From NCBI RefSeq assembly GCF_003334315.1, contig NZ_QOWR01000054.1: DNA of 31,020 nucleotides. One strand, written 5' to 3'. The notes beneath the pieces were generated by a model that saw only the letters and a list, made by a program, of their open reading frames with translations, was not told the DNA's origin and searched no databases. This document shows positions 3,439-22,705 of the stretch, in pieces. Source of the stretch: Escherichia coli (GTDB taxonomy: Bacteria; Pseudomonadota; Gammaproteobacteria; Enterobacterales; Enterobacteriaceae). The translations under genes were made by a program, and so were the position numbers. Each line of letters opens with the position of its first letter. Position 1 is the stretch's first letter.

Positions 3439-4760
3439 CGCGACAGTTTTGCCAATAGCGTTTTGCGCGTGATCCCTAACTGACGGGCGGCTTCGGTTTT
3501 GTTGCCGCCCGTTTTCTCCAGCGCCGCCAGAATCACCTCTTTTTCCACTTCCACCAACGGCTGAATATCCTGACTTTGTCCCAGCGGGATCGGCGTACTG
3601 GCAATCGCCAGCGGCAGCTCGCGTTCGGAAATATATTCCCCGGTCAGCAGCACCACTGCCCGTTCCACCGCGTTTTCCAGCTCACGAATATTTCCCGGCC
3701 AGTCGTAATGAATCAACAGATCCATCGCCTGGGGCGTAAAACCTTTTACCGCCTTGCGATTACGCTCGGCAAAGCGCTGCAGAAAATGGCCAGCCAGCAG
3801 AGGGATATCTTCCCGCCGTTGCCGCAGCGATGGTACTTCAATCGCCACCACATTCAGGCGATAGTAGAGATCCTGGCGAAAACGCCCGGCATTCACCTCT
3901 GCGGCAAGATCGCGATGGGTCGCCGCAATCAGCCGGACATCAACCGAGATAGTCTGGTTGCTACCGACACGCTGAACTTCGCGCTCCTGAATCGCACGCA
4001 GCAGACGCACCTGCATCATCGGCGAGATATCGCCAATTTCATCGAGAAACAGCGTGCCGCCGTCCGCCTCAACAAAGCGCCCTTCCCGGCGTTTATCGGC
4101 TCCAGTAAACGCCCCTTTTTCGTGACCGAACAATTCAGATTCCAGCAAGGATTCGTTGAGTGCCGCACAGTTGAGCGTTACCAGCGGTTTTTCGCTACGT
4201 GCGCTACTGGCGTGAATCGCCCTGGCGACCAGCTCTTTACCGGTGCCGGAATCGCCGTGGATCAGCACCGTGGCTTCCGATGGCGCGACGAGGGCGATTT
4301 CACTGAGCAGGTGTTGCATCGCCGGGCTTTTACCGACCATACCGAACTGGCTGGCAGTCACCGCAGGTGTTTCAGCATCAATACTGTGCGTATGCGCGAG
4401 CGCCTTTTCCAGCGTCGCCTGTAGGTTATCGAAATCCAGCGGCTTGATGAGATAATCCAGCGCCCCGGTTTTCAGTGCCTCTACCGCCGTCTCGACGCTG
4501 GAGTATGCGGTCATAATCAGTACCGGAATCGCCGGATTTAACGCTTTGATCTCTTTTAGCGTGGCAATGCCGTCCATCTCCGCCATTCGCACATCGCAAA
4601 GCACAAGATCAAAAACTCGCTCCCGCACCTGCTCCAGCGCCTGTCGCCCGCTGTTCGCCAGCGCGACGTTATAGCCCCAGCCGCGCAGTAAAGCCTGCAA
4701 AATAGTGCAGTGGCTAATGTCATCATCCACCACCAGAATATCGATATTATCGTGCGTCAT
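3435..4760 (-). CDS. zraR: Sigma-54-dependent response regulator (bacterial enhancer-binding protein)
   Basis: 441-aa ORF with an N-terminal receiver domain (DILVVDDD...), AAA+ sigma-54 activation domain (GDSGTGKE Walker A, GAFTGA loop) and C-terminal helix-turn-helix; stop overlaps the convergent purD stop. Confidence 0.95.
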
Positions 4761-8593: not shown

Positions 8594-9265
8594 TTAGGGC
8601 TGATTTGCTGTATAGCGCACGAACGCCGGACGTTCCGAGGCCACCGCGTCCGCCCAGCGCGTTGGCTCCGGCAGACGATAGCCTTTCATGCAGCGTTGTA
8701 CCCACGCCAGCGCGCTGTCCACGCTGACCCGATGGCCGGTAGCGATAAACAACGGGTTACAGCGCGCTTTGCTGCGCCAGACCCAGGCCAGCTGCTCGCC
8801 TTTATCCATCAGTGGGGCCAGCGCGCCCGGTTCGCTGGAGAGCGGTTCGAATTTACCGCAGAGCCGTTTTTTCGCCACGCCAATGGTCGGCACATCCACC
8901 AATAAGCCAAAATGGCTGGCGACGCCAAGACGGCGAGGATGCGAGATCCCATGACCATCGACAAACACTAAATCCGGCTTTTGCGACAGCATCTCCCACG
9001 CTGCCAGCAGCGCAGGATATTCGCGGAAGGAAAGAAAACCTGGAATGTAAGGCATGGTGGTGGCGATGCGGGCAACTTTATACTCCACCAGCTCAAGCGA
9101 GGGATATTTCAGCAGCACCATCGCCGCTCGCGTCACTTCTCCGCCCTGCTCAAACCCGACATCGGCTCCGGCGATCAGATCCGGTGGATCTTTATCGAGT
9201 CGATCCTCGCGGATCACAGAAGAAGCCAGTTCGATTTGTTGAGCGCGTAATGACGCGAGATCCAT
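8594..9265 (-). CDS. nfi: Endonuclease V (deoxyinosine 3' endonuclease)
   Basis: ORF-track frame 8594..9271; the likely true start is the ATG at 9263-9265 ([10 protein letters not shown]...) preceded by an AAGGAG RBS that overlaps the hemE stop. The track's longer start is a GTG two codons upstream. Confidence 0.9.
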
Positions 9266-9274
9266 AATCACTCC

Positions 9275-10339
9275 TTAGCGGTGATATTGTTCAGACAGTC
9301 GATGCACTGCCTCCACGAACACGCCAGCATGTTCTGGCGGCACATCCTGATGAATGCCGTGACCAAGGTTAAAGACATGACCTTCGCCGTGACCGAAACC
9401 TGCAAGTATAGTCGCTACTTCTTCTTCAATGCGGGCAGGCGGCGCGTACAGCATCGACGGATCCATATTACCCTGCAACGCGACTTTATTGCCCACACGG
9501 CGGCGCGCATCGGCGATATCCGTTGTCCAGTCGAGGCCCAACGCATCGCAACCGGTTTCTGCCATCGCTTCCAGCCACTGTCCGCCGCCTTTGGTAAACA
9601 GCGTGACCGGTACGCGGCGACCGTCGTTTTCACGCAGTAAACCATCAACAATTTTATGCATGTAATAGAGCGAGAACTGTTGATAATCGCGCCCGGTAAG
9701 CACACCGCCCCAGGTGTCGAAAATCATCACTGCCTGAGCACCGGCTTTAATCTGCGCATTCAGATACAAAGTGACGCTTTTCGCCAGTTTATCGAGTAGA
9801 GCGTGCAGCGCCTGCGGATCGGCATACATCATTTTTTTGATCACGGTGAAGGCTTTGCTGCTGCCGCCTTCCACCATGTAGGTTGCCAGCGTCCACGGGC
9901 TGCCGGAAAAACCAATCAGCGGCACTTCGCCTTTCAGTTCGCGACGAATGGTACGCACCGCGTTCATCACGTAACCCAGCTCATCTTCCGGGTCCGGAAT
10001 TGGCAGTTTATCGACGTCGGCTTTGCAGGTGACTGCCGAGGTAAAACGCGGACCTTCTCCGGCTTCAAAATAGAGCCCTAACCCCATCGCGTCCGGCACG
10101 GTGAGGATATCGGAAAAGAGGATCGCCGCATCCAGCGGGTAGCGACGCAGCGGTTGCAAAGTCACTTCGCACGCCAGCTCGGCGTTTTTGCACAGCGACA
10201 TAAAATCGCCCGCCTGGGCGCGCGTGGCTTTATATTCCGGTAGATAGCGACCCGCCTGGCGCATCATCCATACTGGAGTGACATCAACGGGCTGGCGCAG
10301 CAGCGCCCGCAGATAACGATCGTTTTTAAGTTCGGTCAT
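9275..10339 (-). CDS. hemE: Uroporphyrinogen decarboxylase
   Basis: 354-aa [39 protein letters not shown]..., the canonical URO-D N-terminal motif. Confidence 0.97.
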
Positions 10340-10378: not shown

Positions 10379-11152
10379 TCACTCATACTCTGCCCGACAC
10401 ATCGCCACAGTATCTTCTATCAGACGGCGCGCTACGGTGCCGGGCGGCGGGAGTAACGGCAAATCGTCATAGCGATACCAGTTCGCCTCAAGCAATTCTT
10501 TCGGGTCGATCACGATGTCGCCGCTGTCATATTCCGCCATAAACGCGGTCATTAAAGACTGAGGAAACGGCCACGGCTGGGAAGTCACATAACGCAAGTT
10601 TTTAACTTTAATTCCGCTCTCTTCCATCACTTCCCGCGCGACCGCCTGCTCGAGGGTTTCGCCCACTTCGACGAATCCGGCAAGTACCGTATGGACACCG
10701 TTACGATGGCGGGTATGCTGGGCGAGGAGGATCGAATCATCGCGACGGATGGCAACAATAATGCAGGGGGCGATTTGCGGGTAGTAACGCTCACGGCAAT
10801 GGCTGCACAGCATCGCCCATTCGGTTTTGCTCGGATACATTTCATGCCCGCAGTAACCACAGTATTTATGCGATCGGTAAAACTCCGCCAGTTGTACGCC
10901 TCGTCCGGCCAGTTGAAACAGCCCAACATCGAGATCAATGACCTGACGTACCGACCCCATATCGTGACGCCGCTGCTGTTGTACTAACCAAACAGGTTCC
11001 CCCTGCCATTCGCCGATTTGTAGTGCGCGCTGACCCACAAGATCGAAATTTGCCGCTTCGCCATATGGCAATTCTCCCTTCGGCAACCATAATTTTTGTT
11101 CATGGCTGACGACCCACCAGCCGTGATCTAATTTTTCAATTATACGATCCAT
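10379..11152 (-). CDS. nudC: NADH pyrophosphatase (Nudix hydrolase)
   Basis: 257-aa ORF with a zinc-ribbon (CGYCGH...CSHC) and Nudix box ([22 protein letters not shown]). Confidence 0.95.
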
Positions 11153-15420: not shown

Positions 15421-16191
15421 ATGTTACGTATTGCGGACAAAACGTTTGATTCACATCTGTTTACCGGCACAGGGAAATTCGCTTCTTCACAACTGATGGT
15501 GGAGGCGATCCGCGCTTCCGGCAGCCAGCTGGTGACACTGGCGATGAAACGTGTCGACTTGCGCCAGCACAACGACGCTATCCTCGAACCGCTTATCGCG
15601 GCGGGTGTGACCCTGCTGCCAAATACATCCGGGGCGAAAACAGCGGAAGAAGCCATTTTCGCCGCCCATCTGGCTCGTGAAGCGTTAGGCACAAACTGGT
15701 TAAAATTAGAGATTCACCCTGACGCCCGCTGGCTGTTGCCCGATCCCATCGAAACCCTGAAAGCCGCCGAAACGCTGGTACAACAGGGATTTGTCGTGCT
15801 GCCTTACTGCGGGGCCGATCCGGTATTGTGTAAACGTCTGGAAGAAGTCGGCTGTGCAGCGGTGATGCCGCTCGGCGCGCCGATTGGCTCGAATCAGGGA
15901 CTGGAAACCCGCGCCATGCTGGAGATTATTATCCAGCAGGCCACAGTGCCGGTGGTTGTCGATGCTGGCATCGGCGTTCCCAGCCATGCCGCGCAGGCGC
16001 TGGAAATGGGGGCCGACGCGGTGTTAGTGAATACGGCGATTGCCGTCGCGGACGATCCCGTCAACATGGCGAAGGCATTTCGTCTGGCGGTAGAAGCAGG
16101 CCTACTGGCACGTCAGTCCGGACCGGGCAGCCGCAGTTATTTTGCTCATGCCACCAGCCCGCTGACCGGATTTCTGGAGGCATCGGCATGA
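15421..16191 (+). CDS. thiG: Thiazole synthase
   Basis: 256-aa protein [20 protein letters not shown]... starting 1 nt after the thiS stop; the ORF-track frame extends further upstream but the ATG at 15421 matches the recognised ThiG start. Confidence 0.95.
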
Positions 16192-17321
16192 AAACCTTCA
16201 GCGATCGCTGGCGACAACTGGACTGGGACGACATCCGCCTGCGTATCAACGGCAAAACGGCTGCTGACGTAGAGCGGGCGCTAAATGCCTCGCAACTCAC
16301 CCGCGACGACATGATGGCGCTGTTATCGCCTGCCGCCAGTGGCTATCTGGAACAACTGGCCCAACGGGCGCAGCGTCTGACCCGTCAGCGATTTGGCAAC
16401 ACAGTTAGTTTCTACGTCCCGCTTTATCTTTCCAATCTTTGCGCTAACGACTGCACGTACTGTGGATTTTCCATGAGTAATCGCATCAAGCGCAAAACGC
16501 TGGATGAAGCGGATATTGCCAGGGAAAGTGCCGCTATACGGGAGATGGGCTTTGAACATCTGCTGTTAGTCACTGGTGAACATCAGGCGAAAGTGGGGAT
16601 GGATTACTTTCGTCGTCATCTCCCTGCCCTTCGTGAACAGTTCTCTTCACTACAGATGGAAGTGCAACCGCTGGCGGAGACGGAATACGCCGAGTTAAAG
16701 CAACTTGGTCTGGATGGCGTGATGGTTTATCAGGAGACATATCACGAGGCGACTTATGCCCGCCATCATCTGAAAGGCAAAAAACAGGACTTCTTCTGGC
16801 GGCTGGAAACGCCGGATCGGCTGGGGCGTGCGGGGATTGATAAGATAGGCCTCGGCGCGCTAATTGGCCTTTCCGACAACTGGCGCGTTGACAGCTATAT
16901 GGTTGCCGAACATTTGCTATGGCTGCAACAGCATTACTGGCAAAGCCGTTACTCTGTCTCCTTTCCGCGCCTGCGCCCGTGTACTGGCGGCATTGAGCCT
17001 GCGTCGATTATGGATGAACGCCAGTTAGTGCAAACCATCTGCGCCTTCCGACTGCTTGCACCGGAGATTGAACTGTCACTCTCCACGCGGGAATCACCGT
17101 GGTTTCGCGATCGCGTTATTCCGCTGGCGATCAATAACGTCAGCGCCTTCTCGAAAACGCAGCCAGGTGGCTATGCCGATAATCACCCCGAGTTGGAGCA
17201 GTTCTCACCGCACGACGATCGCAGACCGGAAGCGGTTGCTGCCGCGTTAACCGCTCAGGGTTTGCAGCCGGTATGGAAAGACTGGGACAGCTATCTGGGA
17301 CGCGCCTCGCAAAGACTATGA
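16188..17321 (+). CDS. thiH: 2-iminoacetate synthase (tyrosine lyase, radical SAM)
   Basis: 377-aa ORF with the radical-SAM CxxxCxxC motif ([10 protein letters not shown]); start overlaps the thiG stop. Confidence 0.95.
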
Positions 17322-17533
17322 GACGGAATGTAAGAACGTAAATTTATTCCGAGCCGCTACGGAAGATGAAAAACGCAAGGTTGTTGAAAGCGTTGTGTTT
17401 TTTTATGGTAGTGCCGTCAGCAGGAATGTTGTCCAGGGCGAAAAGCTTCTTCCTCGTTTCGCCCTGCCTTTCTTAAAAATTCCGTAATGCAAAGTCTGAA
17501 GCCATCGCCTGTTGAGCAATGAAAGAGATCTGA

Positions 17534-17562
17534 TTGTAAGAGAGTAAATACTCAACTATGAT
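17534..17562 (+). promoter_or_regulatory. Sigma-70-type promoter (TTGTAA, 17-bp spacer, TATGAT) for a small transcript
   Basis: -35 TTGTAA at 17534-17539, exactly 17 nt spacer, -10 TATGAT at 17557-17562; no protein-coding ORF follows before the terminator at about 17707-17739. Confidence 0.5.
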
Positions 17563-17568
17563 AGAGAC

Positions 17569-17739
17569 GAAAATAAGAACACATGTTCTCATCTTCCAGG
17601 ATGCAGCAGACTGAAGAAATTCAGACATCCCGCAACCTGCGATTATCGCAAGGTCAAGGCAAAGTCCGGTAATGGCGTTCTGAATACCAGAGATAATTCT
17701 CTGGCGAAACCCACCTTAGGTGGGTTTTGTTATTTTGAG
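17569..17739 (+). ncRNA. sroH: Candidate small RNA in the thiH-htrC intergenic region (position matches the E. coli sRNA SroH)
   Basis: A roughly 170-nt unit bounded by the promoter above and an intrinsic terminator; no ORF of meaningful size; a small RNA (SroH, about 160 nt) is described at this locus in E. coli. Ends are inferred, not mapped. Confidence 0.45.
17707..17739 (+). terminator. Rho-independent terminator (AAACCCACC-TTAG-GGTGGGTTT followed by a T-rich run)
   Basis: 9-bp perfect stem with a 4-nt loop followed by TGTTATTTT on the plus strand; it abuts the htrC stop on the opposite strand. Confidence 0.75.
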
Positions 17740-18269
17740 GGCTGAGGAAGCTGCTTATTTCTCAATAAGTTGTAGGCAATGGTGAAAAATTTCACTGATT
17801 TACCTTTCTGTTTTTCAGAAATGGGATAAGCGCTAGTTACATGCAAACGGAGTTTTTTCTTTTCCCTGAAAGCCCTGAACGCAACAAAGTAAAATGCCTT
17901 ATCTCCTCCGTCTAAGTCCACCTCAATCACGGCATAGCTACCATACCCGGCATGAATAACGTTGCTTTCTGGCAGCGCCAAAATAGTTCTTTTTAAGTGT
18001 GTGCGCGCTAAGTTATAACGGTGCTGGCAGAAGGGACGAGATTCTTTAGGCGCGTGGTACATTAACGATTGTTTTTCTTCGTTCGTCTGATGTTCATAAT
18101 CTTTTGTGAAGCAGTGAAGAGAGTAGGTAACCCAAAAGCGATACTCTAAAGGCTCTTTGCCCTCATGATGCTGAACGTAGACAGCCTGATGAGCATCAAG
18201 AAATGATAAATCACGAATATCACCATCCGGATGTCCAAAAGGTCGCCACTTTTCCACTTCCTGTTTCAT
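17730..18269 (-). CDS. htrC: Heat-shock protein HtrC (YjaZ)
   Basis: 179-aa ORF MKQEVEKWRPFGHPDGDIRDLSFLDAHQAVYVQHHEGKEPLEYRFWV..., recognised as HtrC/YjaZ, located downstream of rpoC. Confidence 0.9.
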   Translation of the reverse strand: MKQEVEKWRPFGHPDGDIRDLSFLDAHQAVYVQHHEGKEPLEYRFWVTYSLHCFTKDYEHQTNEEKQSLMYHAPKESRPFCQHRYNLARTHLKRTILALPESNVIHAGYGSYAVIEVDLDGGDKAFYFVAFRAFREKKKLRLHVTSAYPISEKQKGKSVKFFTIAYNLLRNKQLPQPSK

Positions 18270-18433
18270 TCTCGTTCCTTAAGAAAGTTACACAGGAATA
18301 GTATCGAATCCTTGCCGAGTTTGACTCAATTAGTTCAGTCAGTTTCAGGATATTAGTCATCTCTACATTGATTATGAGTATTCAGAAATTCCTTAAATAT
18401 TCTGACAAATGCTCTTTCCCTAAACTCCCCCCA

Positions 18434-18460
18434 TAAAAAAACCCGCCGAAGCGGGTTTTT
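18434..18460 (-). terminator. Rho-independent terminator of the rpoBC transcript
   Basis: On the minus strand AAAAACCCGC-TTCG-GCGGGTTTTTTT lies about 25 nt after the rpoC stop; GC-rich stem plus a run of 7 U. Confidence 0.85.
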
Positions 18461-18481
18461 ACGTTATTTGCGGATTAACGA

Positions 18482-21400
18482 TTACTCGTTATCAGAACCG
18501 CCCAGACCTGCGTTCAGCAGTTCTGCCAGGCTGGCAGATGCGTCTTCTGCAGTCACCTGCGGTGCAGCCGGAGCTTCACCCGCAGCACGGCGACGCATAC
18601 GATCCTGGTGGTACGCGTAACCGGTACCTGCCGGGATCAGACGACCCACGATAACGTTCTCTTTCAGGCCGCGCAGTTCGTCGCGTTTGCCCGCAACGGC
18701 TGCTTCGGTCAGCACGCGAGTGGTCTCCTGGAACGATGCCGCGGAGATGAAGGACTCGGTTGCCAGAGACGCTTTGGTGATACCCAGCAGATCGCGGGAG
18801 TAAGTTGCACCCACTTTGCCGTTCGCTTCCAGTTCGCGGTTTGCGATCTTGACGCGAGAGTATTCAACCTGTTCGCCTTCCAGGAAGTCGGAGCTACCCG
18901 CGTTAACGATGGTAGCTTTACGCAGCATCTGACGAACGATAACTTCGATGTGTTTATCGTTAATCTTAACGCCCTGCAGACGGTATACGTCCTGTACTTC
19001 GTTAACGATGTAACGAGTAACAGCATGAACACCACGCAGACGCAGAATGTCGTGCGGCGCTTCCGGACCGTCGGAAATTACGTCACCACGTTCTACACGT
19101 TCACCTTCGAACACGTTGAGCTGACGCCATTTCGGAATCATCTCTTCGTACGGATCGCTACCGTCTACCGGGGTGATAACCAGACGACGTTTACCTTTGG
19201 TTTCTTTACCGAAGGAAACGATACCGCTGATTTCAGCCAGGATTGCCGGCTCTTTCGGACGACGTGCTTCGAACAGGTCCGCAACGCGCGGCAGACCACC
19301 GGTGATGTCCTTGGTACCGCCGGATTCCTGCGGAATACGCGCCAGGGTGTCACCAGAGCTGATCTGTACGCCATCTTCCAGCTGAACAATCGCTTTACCC
19401 GGCAGGAAGTACTGCGCTGGCATATCGGTACCTGGGATCAGAACGTCGTTACCCTGAGCATCAACGATTTTCAGTGCCGGACGCAGATCTTTACCACCTG
19501 CGGTACGTTCTGCGGAATCCAGAACCACCAGCGAAGACAGACCGGTCAGTTCGTCGGTCTGACGCGTAATGGTCTGGCCGTCGATCATGTCAGTAAAGCG
19601 TACAAAACCGCTTACTTCGGTGATAACCGGCATGGTGTGCGGGTCCCAGTTTGCAACGGTTTCGCCGCCAGCAACCTGTTCGCCATCGCCTTTCGCCAGT
19701 ACCGCACCGTAAGGTACTTTGTAGCTTTCTTTAGTACGACCGAATTCGTCGATCAGTTTCAGTTCAGTATTACGGGAAGTGATAACCAGTTTACCGCTGG
19801 AGTTCACAACCGACTTCACGTTGCTGAGCTTGATGCTACCTTTGTTTTTCACTTGGATGCTGGATTCAGCAGCCGCACGAGATGCCGCACCACCGATGTG
19901 GAACGTACGCATGGTCAGCTGTGTACCCGGTTCACCGATGGACTGTGCCGCGATAACACCGATTGCTTCACCCTTGTTGATGATGTGGCCACGCGCCAGG
20001 TCACGACCGTAGCAGTGCGCACATACACCAAAGTCGGTGTCACAAGATACAACAGAACGTACTTTAACCGCGTCGACAGAGTTCTCTTCCAGCAGGTCAC
20101 ACCACTGTTCGTGCAGCAGCGTGTTGCGCGGAACGAGGATATCAGCAGTACCCGGCTTCAGAACGTCTTCAGCAGTTACACGACCCAGTACGCGATCGCG
20201 CAGCGGCTCTTTAACGTCACCACCCTCGATAACCGGAGTCATCATGATACCTTCATGGGTACCACAATCGTCTTCGGTAACCACCAGGTCCTGCGCCACG
20301 TCAACCAGACGACGAGTCAGGTAACCGGAGTTCGCAGTTTTCAGTGCGGTATCCGCCAGACCTTTACGAGCACCGTGGGTGGAGATGAAGTACTGGAGTA
20401 CGTTCAGACCTTCACGGAAGTTCGCGGTGATTGGCGTTTCGATGATGGAGCCATCCGGCTTCGCCATCAGACCACGCATACCAGCAAGCTGACGAATCTG
20501 TGCCGCAGAACCACGCGCACCGGAGTCGGCCATCATGTAGATGCTGTTGAAGGAAACCTGCTTCTCTTCCTGACCGTCACGGTTAATCACGGTTTCAGTT
20601 TGCAGGTTATCCATCATCGCTTTGGATACACGATCGTTCGCCGCAGCCCAGATATCGATAACTTTGTTGTAGCGTTCGCCCGCAGTTACCAGACCAGACT
20701 GGAACTGCTCCTGAATTTCAGCAACTTCTGCTTCTGCCTCGGAGATGATTTCGTGTTTCTTCTCCGGGATGACCATGTCATCGATACCAACAGATGCACC
20801 AGAACGCGCTGCATAGGCGAAGCCGGTGTACATGATCTGGTCCGCAAAAATAACGGTCGGTTTCAGACCGAGAATGCGGTAGCAGGTGTTCAGCATTTTG
20901 GAGATTGCTTTTTTACCCAGCGCCTGGTTGACGATGGAGTAAGGCAGACCTTTCGGTACAATCATCCACAGAATGGCACGGCCAACAGTCGTGTCTTTCA
21001 GGCTGGTTTTCGCTACTAATTCACCGTTAGCATCTTTTTCATACTCGGTGATACGCACTTTAACGCGCGCATGCAGAGAAGCCAGACCAGAGCGATACAG
21101 ACGTTCTGCTTCTTTCGGGCCAGTCAGCACCATGCCTTCGCCTTTGGCGTTAACACAGTCACGGGTCATGTAGTACAGACCCAGTACAACGTCCTGAGAC
21201 GGAACGATGATTGGTTCGCCGTTCGCCGGGGACAGGATGTTGTTGGTAGACATCATCAGCGCACGCGCTTCCAGCTGGGCTTCCAGCGTCAGCGGTACGT
21301 GAACAGCCATCTGGTCACCATCGAAGTCGGCGTTATATGCCGCACAAACCAGCGGGTGCAGCTGGATAGCTTTACCTTCGATCAGTACCGGTTCAAATGC

Positions 21401-22705
21401 CTGGATACCCAGACGGTGCAGAGTCGGTGCACGGTTCAGCAGTACCGGGTGTTCGCGGATAACTTCGTCCAGGATATCCCAAACGACAGCTTCTTCGCGC
21501 TCAACCATTTTCTTCGCAGCTTTAATGGTGGTAGCAAGACCACGCAGTTCCAGCTTGCCGTAGATGAACGGTTTGAACAGCTCCAGTGCCATTTTCTTCG
21601 GAAGACCGCACTGATGCAGACGCAGGTATGGACCTACGGTGATTACAGAACGACCGGAGTAGTCAACACGCTTACCGAGCAGGTTCTGACGGAAACGACC
21701 CTGTTTACCTTTGATCATGTCGGCCAAAGATTTCAGAGGACGCTTGTTAGAACCGGTGATCGCACGACCGCGACGACCGTTATCCAGCAGGGCGTCTACC
21801 GCTTCCTGCAGCATACGTTTTTCGTTACGTACGATGATGTCCGGCGCAGCCAGATCCAGCAGACGTTTCAGACGGTTGTTACGGTTAATGACGCGACGAT
21901 ACAGATCGTTCAGGTCAGAAGTCGCGAAACGACCACCATCCAGCGGAACCAGCGGACGCAGATCTGGCGGCAGTACCGGCAGAACGGTCAGGATCATCCA
22001 CTCTGGTTTGTTACCAGACTGAACGAACGCTTCCAGCAGTTTGATACGCTTGGTCAGCTTTTTACGCTTGGTTTCGGAGTTGGTTTCGTTCAGCTCTTCA
22101 CGCAGCTGTTCGCACTCTTGCTCCAGATCCATGCTCTTCAGCAGAGCCTGGATTGCTTCCGCCCCCATCTTCGCGTCGAATTCGTCACCGAACTCTTCCA
22201 GCGCGTCCAGATACTGCTCTTCAGTCAGGATCTGCTGACGTTCCAGGTTGGTCATACCGCCTTCGATAACCACATAGGATTCAAAGTACAGTACGCGTTC
22301 GATATCGCGCAGCGGCATATCGAGCAGCAGACCGATACGGGACGGCAGCGATTTCAGGAACCAGATGTGCGCAGTCGGGGAAGCCAGTTCGATGTGGCCC
22401 ATACGCTCACGGCGTACTTTAGTCTGGGTCACTTCAACGCCGCACTTCTCACAGATGACGCCACGGTGTTTCAGGCGCTTGTACTTACCGCACAGGCACT
22501 CGTAATCTTTTACCGGCCCAAAGATACGGGCGCAGAAAAGGCCGTCACGTTCTGGTTTGAACGTACGGTAGTTGATGGTTTCCGGCTTTTTAACTTCACC
22601 GAAAGACCATGAACGGATCATGTCTGGCGAAGCCAGAGCAATTTTGATCGCATCAAACTCTTCGGTTTTAGTCTGCGCTTTCAGAAACTTTAATAAATCT
22701 TTCAC
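18482..22705 (-). CDS. rpoC: DNA-directed RNA polymerase subunit beta'
   Basis: 1407-aa [67 protein letters not shown]... with the NADFDGD catalytic motif; the start codon is GTG (rc of 22703-22705). Confidence 0.99.

Follow-up and report, generated by a model that had tools for sequence, protein, structure and literature searches.

SroH of Escherichia coli is an independently transcribed, structured RNA that forms a mobile two-gene cassette with yjaZ

The DNA analysed here is a 31,020-nucleotide stretch of an Escherichia coli contig (NZ_QOWR01000054.1 of assembly GCF_003334315.1; hereafter, the window), in which a promoter-to-terminator unit at positions 17534-17739, between thiH and yjaZ (also called htrC), had been predicted from the letters alone to be the gene for the small RNA (sRNA) SroH. 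The unit is sroH, a gene that has been known since 2003 (the original paper is said to be that of Vogel et al.) and is annotated, so by itself it is not new. What appears to be undescribed is its context. SroH is not a core-genome regulator but half of a self-contained, horizontally mobile cassette, the other half of which is the convergent protein-coding gene yjaZ. The best explanation overall, which we consider probable, is that sroH is the independent sRNA component of this two-gene cassette and that its RNA controls YjaZ. The original statement that the function of SroH is not settled holds; genetically, the RNA is tied to yjaZ and not to thiH. Neither the Rfam description of SroH nor any paper that we found in the searchable literature (open-access literature and bioRxiv) mentions the link between sroH and yjaZ/htrC or the multi-helix fold, and no such paper describes the spread of the pair across plasmids and phyla.

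The Rfam sroH model (RF00372) matches positions 17569-17728 of the plus strand with 193.8 bits, compared with a gathering score of 80, and the match covers model positions 1-161 of 161 (E = 9e-49). The homologous position in strain MG1655 carries the annotated noncoding RNA gene sroH (b4691). That the unit is sroH and that it is transcribed independently are nearly certain. The predicted sigma-70 promoter is present exactly at 17534-17562 on the plus strand, with the -35 hexamer TTGTAA (17534-17539) and the -10 hexamer TATGAT (17557-17562) separated by 17 nt and matching 9 of 12 consensus positions. Taken alone, this score is within chance (a scan of 2.3 kb gave 4 promoter-like sites with 1.8 expected), but the call gains weight because the Rfam model starts at 17569, placing the end of the -10 hexamer 7 nt before the 5' end given by Rfam and EcoCyc; equivalent promoters also lie 5' of homologous RNAs. 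The strong intrinsic terminator predicted downstream was borne out with bounds of 17707-17736 on the plus strand, where a 9-bp, G+C-rich stem (17707-17715 with 17719-17727) and a UUA loop form the hairpin AAACCCACC-UUA-GGUGGGUUU (17707-17727), followed by the tail UGUUAUUUU up to 17736. A consensus terminator scan missed this element. The hairpin is the strongest local fold (-18.7 kcal/mol) and the only helix marked in the RF00372 consensus, and the minimum-free-energy structure computed for the entire unit also contains it (z = -5.7; none of 200 shuffles was as stable); 6 of 8 stem pairs are compensated in homologues. The gene ends in a rho-independent terminator. The resulting noncoding transcript would be ~160-168 nt long, starting near 17569 and ending at ~17728-17736.

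The sroH sequence of the window is that of MG1655 minus one base (A) in the terminator loop, which reads UUA at 17716-17718 in the window and UUAA in MG1655 and in every complete genome searched. Among 5,426 complete E. coli genomes the best sroH match does not exceed 99.5%, while the neighbouring yjaZ has matches of 100%. Judging from these comparisons, the single-base deletion, which falls in an AA run, is either private to the source of this DNA or a sequencing error.

The gene order in the window is thiH (16188-17321, plus strand), a gap of 408 bp as originally stated (thiH ends at 17321 and yjaZ at 17730), yjaZ (17730-18269, minus strand) and rpoC (18482-22705, minus strand), and the yjaZ stop codon (17730-17732) falls within the U-tract of the sroH terminator. 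Because sroH lies on the thiH strand downstream of thiH, SroH could in principle be a 3'-untranslated region (3'-UTR) or read-through fragment of the thiCEFSGH transcript, but this reading is effectively refuted and we give it virtually no weight. Two terminator-like hairpins, one at 17373-17410 (-14.6 kcal/mol, with a U7 tail) and one at 17434-17466 (-15.0 kcal/mol, with a weak tail), stand between thiH and the sroH promoter, and both lie outside the cassette and are retained in strains that have thiH but lack sroH. The sroH promoter lies within an indel that is missing from 31% of E. coli genomes with an intact thiH. Homologues of sroH occur in unrelated contexts, far from any thi genes, and have their own sigma-70-like promoter just 5' of the RNA, which matches at least 9 of 12 positions in 42 of the 55 different upstream regions; these promoters show no sequence conservation but are positioned for a start either at the GGAUG motif described below or ~30 nt upstream of it, with a variable 5' hairpin, as in E. 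coli. Finally, a primary SroH transcript and processed forms have been reported (PMC5389530). The claim of independent transcription is thus supported by the interposed hairpins, the indel, the promoters of the homologues and the published primary transcript. SroH is also reported to be polyadenylated at its 3' end, to accumulate in a pcnB mutant and to undergo poly(A)-dependent turnover (PMC5389530), and it accumulates strongly at entry into stationary phase (bioRxiv 10.64898/2025.12.22.696124). The latter study raises the idea of direct control by CRP; no CRP-like site with 3 or fewer mismatches is present in 17480-17565, so the sequence lends this idea no support.

Comparison with strain GN05064 showed that sroH and yjaZ together occupy a presence/absence indel of ~945 bp (17486-18430). 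By megablast, ~1,700 of the 5,426 complete E. coli genomes keep only about the first 164 nt of the gap, to ~17485, and in cassette-free genomes a 24-nt sequence, GAAGAATTGCCCTCTGAATAACAC, takes the place of 17486 to ~18430 between the thiH terminator and the rpoC terminator, such that in GN05064 rpoC lies ~240 bp after thiH. sroH was found in 3,740 of the 5,426 genomes and yjaZ in 3,738, indicating that the two genes are present or absent jointly, and the pattern of absence agrees with a published report that phylogroups B2 and D have lost sroH (PMC3318445). Records with at least 99% identity numbered 3,733 for sroH and 2,943 for yjaZ. The 24-nt filler (L002 3166-3189, in GN05064) holds TCTGAATAACAC, which is like the invariant SroH sequence UCUGAAUACCAG at 9 of 12 positions; the filler may be the relic of an old deletion rather than a site that was never occupied. 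In another cassette-free strain, 504838, the gap between thiH and rpoC contains an IS1 element (L003 3137-3834), suggesting that the gap is a site of recurrent rearrangement. A candidate YjaZ-binding motif common to SroH and the yjaZ leader (UUCUGAAUAC, ~18376-18387, minus strand) was attributed to chance, since it is found in only some E. coli and not in other lineages.

The pairing of the two genes extends well beyond E. coli. YjaZ homologues with 47-78% identity are encoded on plasmids of E. fergusonii, Raoultella and other Enterobacteriaceae, in a Pantoea conjugative element, on the Aeromonas hydrophila chromosome beside a tRNA gene and in the cyanobacterium Waterburya. A protein-first search showed that all 14 distinct loci encoding a YjaZ of at least 47% identity, 7 of which (7/7) are on viral contigs, carry an RNA that is convergent with yjaZ and abuts its stop codon. 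At the nonviral loci the Rfam sroH model matches the opposite strand directly after the yjaZ stop with scores from 144 down to 69.8 bits, the Aeromonas (74.3 bits) and cyanobacterial (69.8 bits) RNAs falling below the RF00372 gathering score of 80. A metagenome scan using only a strict RNA pattern (GGATGCAGCAGAC-N6-30-GACATCCCG) returned 94 loci, one of them false. Among the 72 informative loci, those with at least 750 nt of downstream sequence, a convergent YjaZ was present in 59, where the stop codon mostly lies 88-150 nt from the motif; the other 13 were RNA-only remnants. Protein-only loci were not seen. A search of PLSDB with the sroH sequence of E. coli gave matches on 103 plasmids (36 from Serratia, 18 from Enterobacter, 16 from Escherichia, 14 from Klebsiella and 2 from Thiothrix among them), and on a 2,462-bp ColE1-type (ColRNAI) plasmid yjaZ is the only substantial gene, with sroH abutting it. 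Together, these data make an obligate genetic partnership between sroH and yjaZ very probable.

Some records and loci deserve separate mention. Several PLSDB “plasmids” with E. coli-type sroH-yjaZ are chromosome-sized (CP061233.1, 1.0 Mb; NZ_CP134663.1, 4.9 Mb; NZ_OL790696.1, 4.8 Mb); they are probably mislabelled and not countable as plasmid copies. One metagenome contig (L033) carries two SroH-YjaZ cassettes ~7 kb apart (3677-3806 and 10891-10959). In four RNA-only metagenome loci (L018, at 8822-9356, and L068, L088 and L059), a relB/dinJ-like antitoxin gene and a RelE-family toxin gene occupy the place of yjaZ, convergent to an intact SroH and ending 65 nt from the 3' end of the RNA, which may be a coincidence or may reflect the replacement of one toxin by another. 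In an RNA-only locus of the cyanobacterial type (L040, at 613-665; also L053), a same-strand ORF (open reading frame) resembling a DNA cytosine methyltransferase (METQPKNLTVVDLFSGCGGLSLG...) begins within the SroH terminator U-tract. A Vibrio parahaemolyticus plasmid (L114) carries at 1250-1433 a class I-like RNA (46.7 bits, with a compensated P1 helix) that is followed by an opposite-strand remnant of the yjaZ C-terminus (LPQK-stop) and, at 1462-2013, by a yjaZ-like gene (35% identity) that shares its strand with the RNA and lies beside an IS200/IS605 transposase gene.

Covariance analysis of the homologous regions, which had been proposed as a check, revealed a multi-helix fold with compensatory changes. 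The 53 distinct variants share one architecture, of which the 5' part is (A/U)GGAUG-CAGCAGA-(P1b)-A-CAUCC, then CG-X-X2 (the 5' strand of P5), ACC-(P2, of variable length)-GGU and a short P3, and the 3' part is GGUAA-Y2-Y-CG (the 3' strand of P5), UUCUGAAUA, P4, and CGAA with the terminator. A hand-drawn structure was scored on a sequence-only MAFFT alignment of 22 variants against controls in which the pairing partners were slid by 1-3 columns: 96.8% of cells were paired, compared with 38-51% in the slid controls, 15 pairs were compensated, and 0 of 500 shuffles reached the observed values. A covariance model built from this alignment (R1) was used to align 49 distinct variants, and in the resulting alignment 97.7% of the cells of the seven-helix fold were paired (34-51% in slid controls), with 16 compensated pairs and 257 compensated cells. 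RNAalifold, applied de novo to the sequence-only alignment, found P1, P1b, P5, P4 and the terminator. Between the helices lie long invariant unpaired blocks. G-U pairs are frequent (for example, 34 of 49 in P5), indicating that the plus strand is the functional strand.

In the window, all parts of this fold are on the plus strand. The conserved SroH core (17598-17732; a full-length match to R1 with 113.3 bits) is preceded by an enteric-type 5' leader (17569-17597) with the small hairpin GAAC-ACAU-GUUC (17577-17588); at this point the enteric and plasmid copies form hairpins that are not homologous, and most other lineages are leaderless and start at GGAUG. P1 (17599-17630) pairs GGAUG (17599-17603) with CAUCC (17626-17630) and encloses the invariant loop CAGCAGA (17604-17610), which lies within the segment GCAGCAGAC (17603-17611), and the P1b hairpin (17611-17615 with 17620-17624), with compensatory changes in 3 of 4 pairs. 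Within class I, the class of the E. coli RNA, P1 does not vary, but distant copies carry compensated versions of it, CGAUG/CAUCG (L114) and GGGUG/CACCC (L115). The long-range helix P5 (17631-17677) pairs CGC (17631-17633) with GCG (17675-17677) and closes a junction that holds P2 and P3; its third pair (X:Y) is C-G in 24, U-A in 24 and A-U in 1 of 49 sequences. P2 (17635-17654; ACCUGCG / CGCA-A-GGU) has invariant ACC and GGU and a variable length, its fourth pair being A-U in 18, C-G in 11, U-A in 11 and U-G in 4 sequences, and short versions have GNRA loops. P3 (17658-17667; GG...CC) is the weakest helix, with 82% of cells paired and no compensatory change. The near-invariant segment GGUAAUGGCGUUCUGAAUA (17668-17686) is unpaired except for the 3' strand of P5 (17675-17677) and ends in the invariant unpaired segment at 17678-17686 (UUCUGAAUA). 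P4 (17687-17704; CCAGAG / CUCUGG), in which 5 of 6 pairs show compensatory changes, leads to the terminator.

Two other foldings were set aside. RNAalifold on the MAFFT alignment offered an alternative in which ACC pairs with the GGU of CCGGUAA; P2 is preferred because the base that follows ACC and the one that precedes the proximal GGU covary, and because the helix extends in every variant. The minimum-free-energy fold of the E. coli sequence by itself (-49.4 kcal/mol, compared with -39.0 kcal/mol for the comparative structure) differs from the comparative structure and was also not adopted. In a Raoultella plasmid (L007, 3538-3769), an insert of ~110 nt in P2 causes Rfam and R1 to report split or partial matches.

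These data also bear on the possibility that the unit encodes a small protein or is a recombination or replication site acting at the level of DNA. As originally stated, the unit contains no credible ORF: the sole plus-strand ORF (29 aa, 17583-17672) is not conserved. An AUG within GGAUGCAG, which would open a 23-aa ORF, and a UAA within GGUAA are invariant, and the cassette is common on plasmids. The frame that starts at the invariant AUG, however, ranges from 4 to 51 codons across the 53 homologues, since length differences among the hairpins are not multiples of three, and it is not preceded by a spaced Shine-Dalgarno sequence. A DNA site is countered by the strand-specific G-U pairs and by the promoter and terminator found in every lineage, which point to RNA rather than duplex DNA, and by the fact that the 2.4-kb plasmid has its own ColRNAI replicon. 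We rejected the small-protein reading because its reading frame is not conserved, and regard both possibilities as very remote.

The partner protein, YjaZ (17730-18269, minus strand), has 179 aa and an isoelectric point of 9.3. It belongs to NCBIfam family NF007263 (430.1 bits, with a cut-off of 324), and PF27200 is precomputed on all of its homologues. The function once assigned to it as htrC has been retracted by EcoCyc (PMC11551758). YjaZ has no match beyond its own family in the copy of Pfam-A searched, in PADLOC or in PHROGs, and a search of PDB sequences gave no match to a solved structure. The AlphaFold2 model is confident (predicted local distance difference test score 89, predicted template modelling score 0.85) and has an alpha/beta fold; a Foldseek search of the PDB returned nothing significant, HigB2 being the best match (E = 0.18). 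Residues H52, K56, R78, R84, H106, R141, H143 and Y148 are invariant or nearly so, a set of conserved His, Arg, Lys and Tyr side chains that would be apt for an RNase acting without metal, which we regard as a lead and not as a result.

Our data suggest the following model. The sigma-70 promoter starts SroH at ~17569 and the intrinsic terminator ends it at ~17728-17736, independently of thiH; the RNA folds into P1/P1b, the P5-closed junction with P2 and P3, then P4 and the terminator; and it would bind the basic protein YjaZ through its invariant unpaired stretches and control it. Abundant and short-lived SroH may in this way keep a harmful, possibly RNA-cleaving YjaZ inactive in the style of type III toxin-antitoxin (TA) and abortive-infection systems, and convergent transcription through the common terminator may add antisense coupling. 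Most likely, then, SroH is the RNA partner dedicated to YjaZ, and it may inhibit YjaZ within a TA-like module. Direct binding between SroH and YjaZ seems to us somewhat better than an even chance, and the antitoxin-like role of SroH is a more tentative suggestion. The TA-like reading is drawn from the asymmetry between RNA-only remnants (13 of 72) and protein-only loci (none), from the patchy, mobile distribution of the cassette and its presence as the sole cargo of a plasmid, and from the better conservation of the RNA gene than of yjaZ in E. coli, which suggests that the RNA is under stronger constraint.

Several observations weigh against this proposal. No experiment on SroH and YjaZ together was found in the literature searched. 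In the account cited in PMC5389530, a K-12 sroH deletion mutant is viable and sensitivity to cell-envelope stress is the only phenotype given, which argues against a potent restrained toxin in K-12. The hallmarks of type III systems, tandem RNA repeats and cotranscription of the two genes, are missing; YjaZ is not recognised by PADLOC or PHROGs; and the evidence from its predicted fold is weak. The asymmetry between RNA-only and protein-only loci comes from small samples and a strict RNA pattern. In addition, SroH binds kbl mRNA in vitro (PMC6172242) and is enriched in Hfq photoactivatable ribonucleoside-enhanced crosslinking and immunoprecipitation (PAR-CLIP) data (bioRxiv 10.1101/2020.06.29.178624), both of which fit an additional or alternative base-pairing role.

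The last two observations raise the possibility that SroH is a conventional trans-acting, Hfq-assisted base-pairing sRNA, directed at chromosomal mRNAs such as those of kbl or envelope-stress genes, and that its linkage to yjaZ is a case of hitch-hiking on a small islet. Such a role would fit its own promoter, its terminator with a U-tail, the gel shift with kbl mRNA, the enrichment in the Hfq PAR-CLIP, the envelope-stress sensitivity of the deletion mutant as cited in PMC5389530, and its accumulation in stationary phase. We nevertheless consider it unlikely, because invariant blocks of more than 20 nt and a seven-helix fold are preserved from enterobacteria to cyanobacteria, and host targets cannot be conserved so widely; the conserved unpaired blocks are invariant in hosts as far apart as cyanobacteria and on plasmids, a poor fit to host-specific targets. 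Moreover, sroH resides on plasmids, one of which (2.4 kb) has sroH and yjaZ as its sole cargo, and 31% of E. coli genomes lack it. The PAR-CLIP authors do not themselves count SroH among the established Hfq targets (bioRxiv 10.1101/2020.06.29.178624), and overexpression of SroH gave no biofilm or motility phenotype (PMC4606813).

Two further alternatives accept the link to yjaZ and differ from a protein-binding inhibitor in what the RNA does. SroH could act only in cis, by antisense pairing or transcriptional interference arising from convergence and the common terminator, without binding the protein. The convergent, abutting layout at nearly all loci and the position of the yjaZ stop codon in the terminator U-tract are what such an arrangement would look like, and on the yjaZ strand the hairpin is followed only by UUUCGCC, so yjaZ transcripts may read into antisense sroH. 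The best-conserved parts of SroH, however, lie 60-130 nt upstream of the overlap and include compensated helices, none of which antisense action needs there, and in L114 the class I-like RNA is upstream of, and on the same strand as, the yjaZ-like gene; we think a purely cis-acting SroH improbable, a little more so than the Hfq-dependent role. Alternatively, SroH and YjaZ may assemble into a ribonucleoprotein, with the RNA serving a YjaZ activity, for example in defence or RNA processing, as cofactor, scaffold or substrate rather than as an inhibitor. The co-occurrence and structural evidence serves this possibility as well as the model favoured here, and the processed forms of SroH (PMC5389530) and the viability of the deletion mutant, as cited there, fit it too. 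Against it, the finding of RNA-only remnants but no protein-only loci fits an inhibitor better, weakly, and the variable parts of the RNA are hairpins, with no guide-like single-stranded segment that varies. Of the alternatives to RNA-mediated inhibition of YjaZ we give this one the most weight, while still thinking it rather unlikely.

Comparison with known systems places the pair near several of them without matching any. The Rfam/b4691 entry is the same gene, but Rfam marks the terminator helix alone. Type III TA systems (ToxIN, CptIN, TenpIN) likewise consist of an abundant small RNA gene with its own terminator beside a protein gene, are patchily distributed on mobile DNA, and have the logic proposed here, in which the RNA binds and neutralises the protein; as in those systems, the sroH RNA gene adjoins and is coinherited with its protein gene. 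They differ in that 17480-18440 contains no tandem repeat, SroH being a single complex fold of ~135 nt, in that sroH and yjaZ are convergent with separate promoters at nearly all loci instead of forming one RNA-terminator-toxin operon (a tandem RNA-protein layout is found only in L114), and in that YjaZ has no ToxN/Kid-like match. The 3'-overlapping type I TA pairs of B. subtilis (such as bsrG/SR4 and txpA/RatA) likewise have convergent genes whose 3' ends abut or overlap, and their RNAs, 150-200 nt long, are transcribed from promoters of their own, but their toxins are small hydrophobic peptides, whereas YjaZ is a soluble, basic protein of 179 aa, and the conserved parts of SroH lie outside the overlap. 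Toxins of the RelE/ParE superfamily and RNases with the BECR fold are also among the nearest known systems. Comparative-genomics surveys have described orphan structured-RNA motifs that are tied to one uncharacterised protein family, such as the DUF3800-associated motifs. These share with SroH a covariation-supported fold and, as the sole clue to function, strict adjacency to one protein family on mobile DNA; SroH differs from them in being an experimentally detected, annotated transcript of E. coli K-12, for which genetics and biochemistry are at hand.

The pair belongs to a wider set of RNA and protein genes. By tblastn, 559 plasmids encode YjaZ-like proteins; the majority of these come from Klebsiella, at ~29% identity. 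Downstream of, and convergent with, distant yjaZ-like genes, R1 gives weak matches (E from 6e-6 to 5e-3), and for genes with 27-34% identity the convergent RNA shares the architecture but differs in its junction sequences. This class II RNA keeps the order of the helices with other junctions, GGAUG-GUUACAGG-hairpin-G-CAUCC-CGCx-P2-P3-xGCG-ACCUGCC-P4-terminator, and is present on 438 plasmids; adding the 103 with class I comes close to the 559 that encode YjaZ-like proteins. The parallel differences suggest joint diversification of RNA and protein. In Agrobacterium, a homologue has a promoter-to-terminator unit at the same place, which R1 does not match. Foldseek against AFDB50 found YjaZ-like folds in Deinococcus, Acidobacteria, Burkholderiales, Legionella and Vibrio, with only YjaZ-like or unannotated proteins among the 50 matches listed.

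A speculative extension of these findings, to which we would assign a minority share of belief, is that SroH-YjaZ could be the founding pair of an undescribed, widespread group of mobile RNA-protein modules in which a ~135-nt RNA of complex fold, rather than a repeat array, serves as the antidote or cofactor of a RelE-like basic protein in an addiction or anti-phage system. If so, the group would comprise several codiversified RNA/protein subclasses, with the class II pair on at least 438 plasmids, mostly of Klebsiella, and more distant members on Pseudomonas and Agrobacterium plasmids, and as an addiction or defence module the pair would bear on the persistence of clinical Klebsiella and Enterobacter plasmids. 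In E. coli itself, an orphan sRNA gene and a gene of the y-ome with a retracted htrC assignment explain each other's presence, and two entries without a function become one hypothesis open to test in K-12, namely that YjaZ binds SroH and is harmful without it. In hundreds of clinical plasmids of Klebsiella and Enterobacter, the analysis also flags an unannotated RNA gene beside genes labelled “hypothetical protein”.

Two minor observations concern other parts of the window. The rpoC terminator region (18434-18555, minus strand) gave sub-threshold Rfam matches (rsmX, Trp leader, istR and Leu leader) and weak R1 matches; all of them, including those near 18435-18540, are spurious and driven by the hairpin alone. 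Far 5' of the thi operon, positions 188-203 contain a perfect palindromic CRP consensus (TGTGAAGTGATTCACA, 0 mismatches), the sole exact match in the 31 kb.

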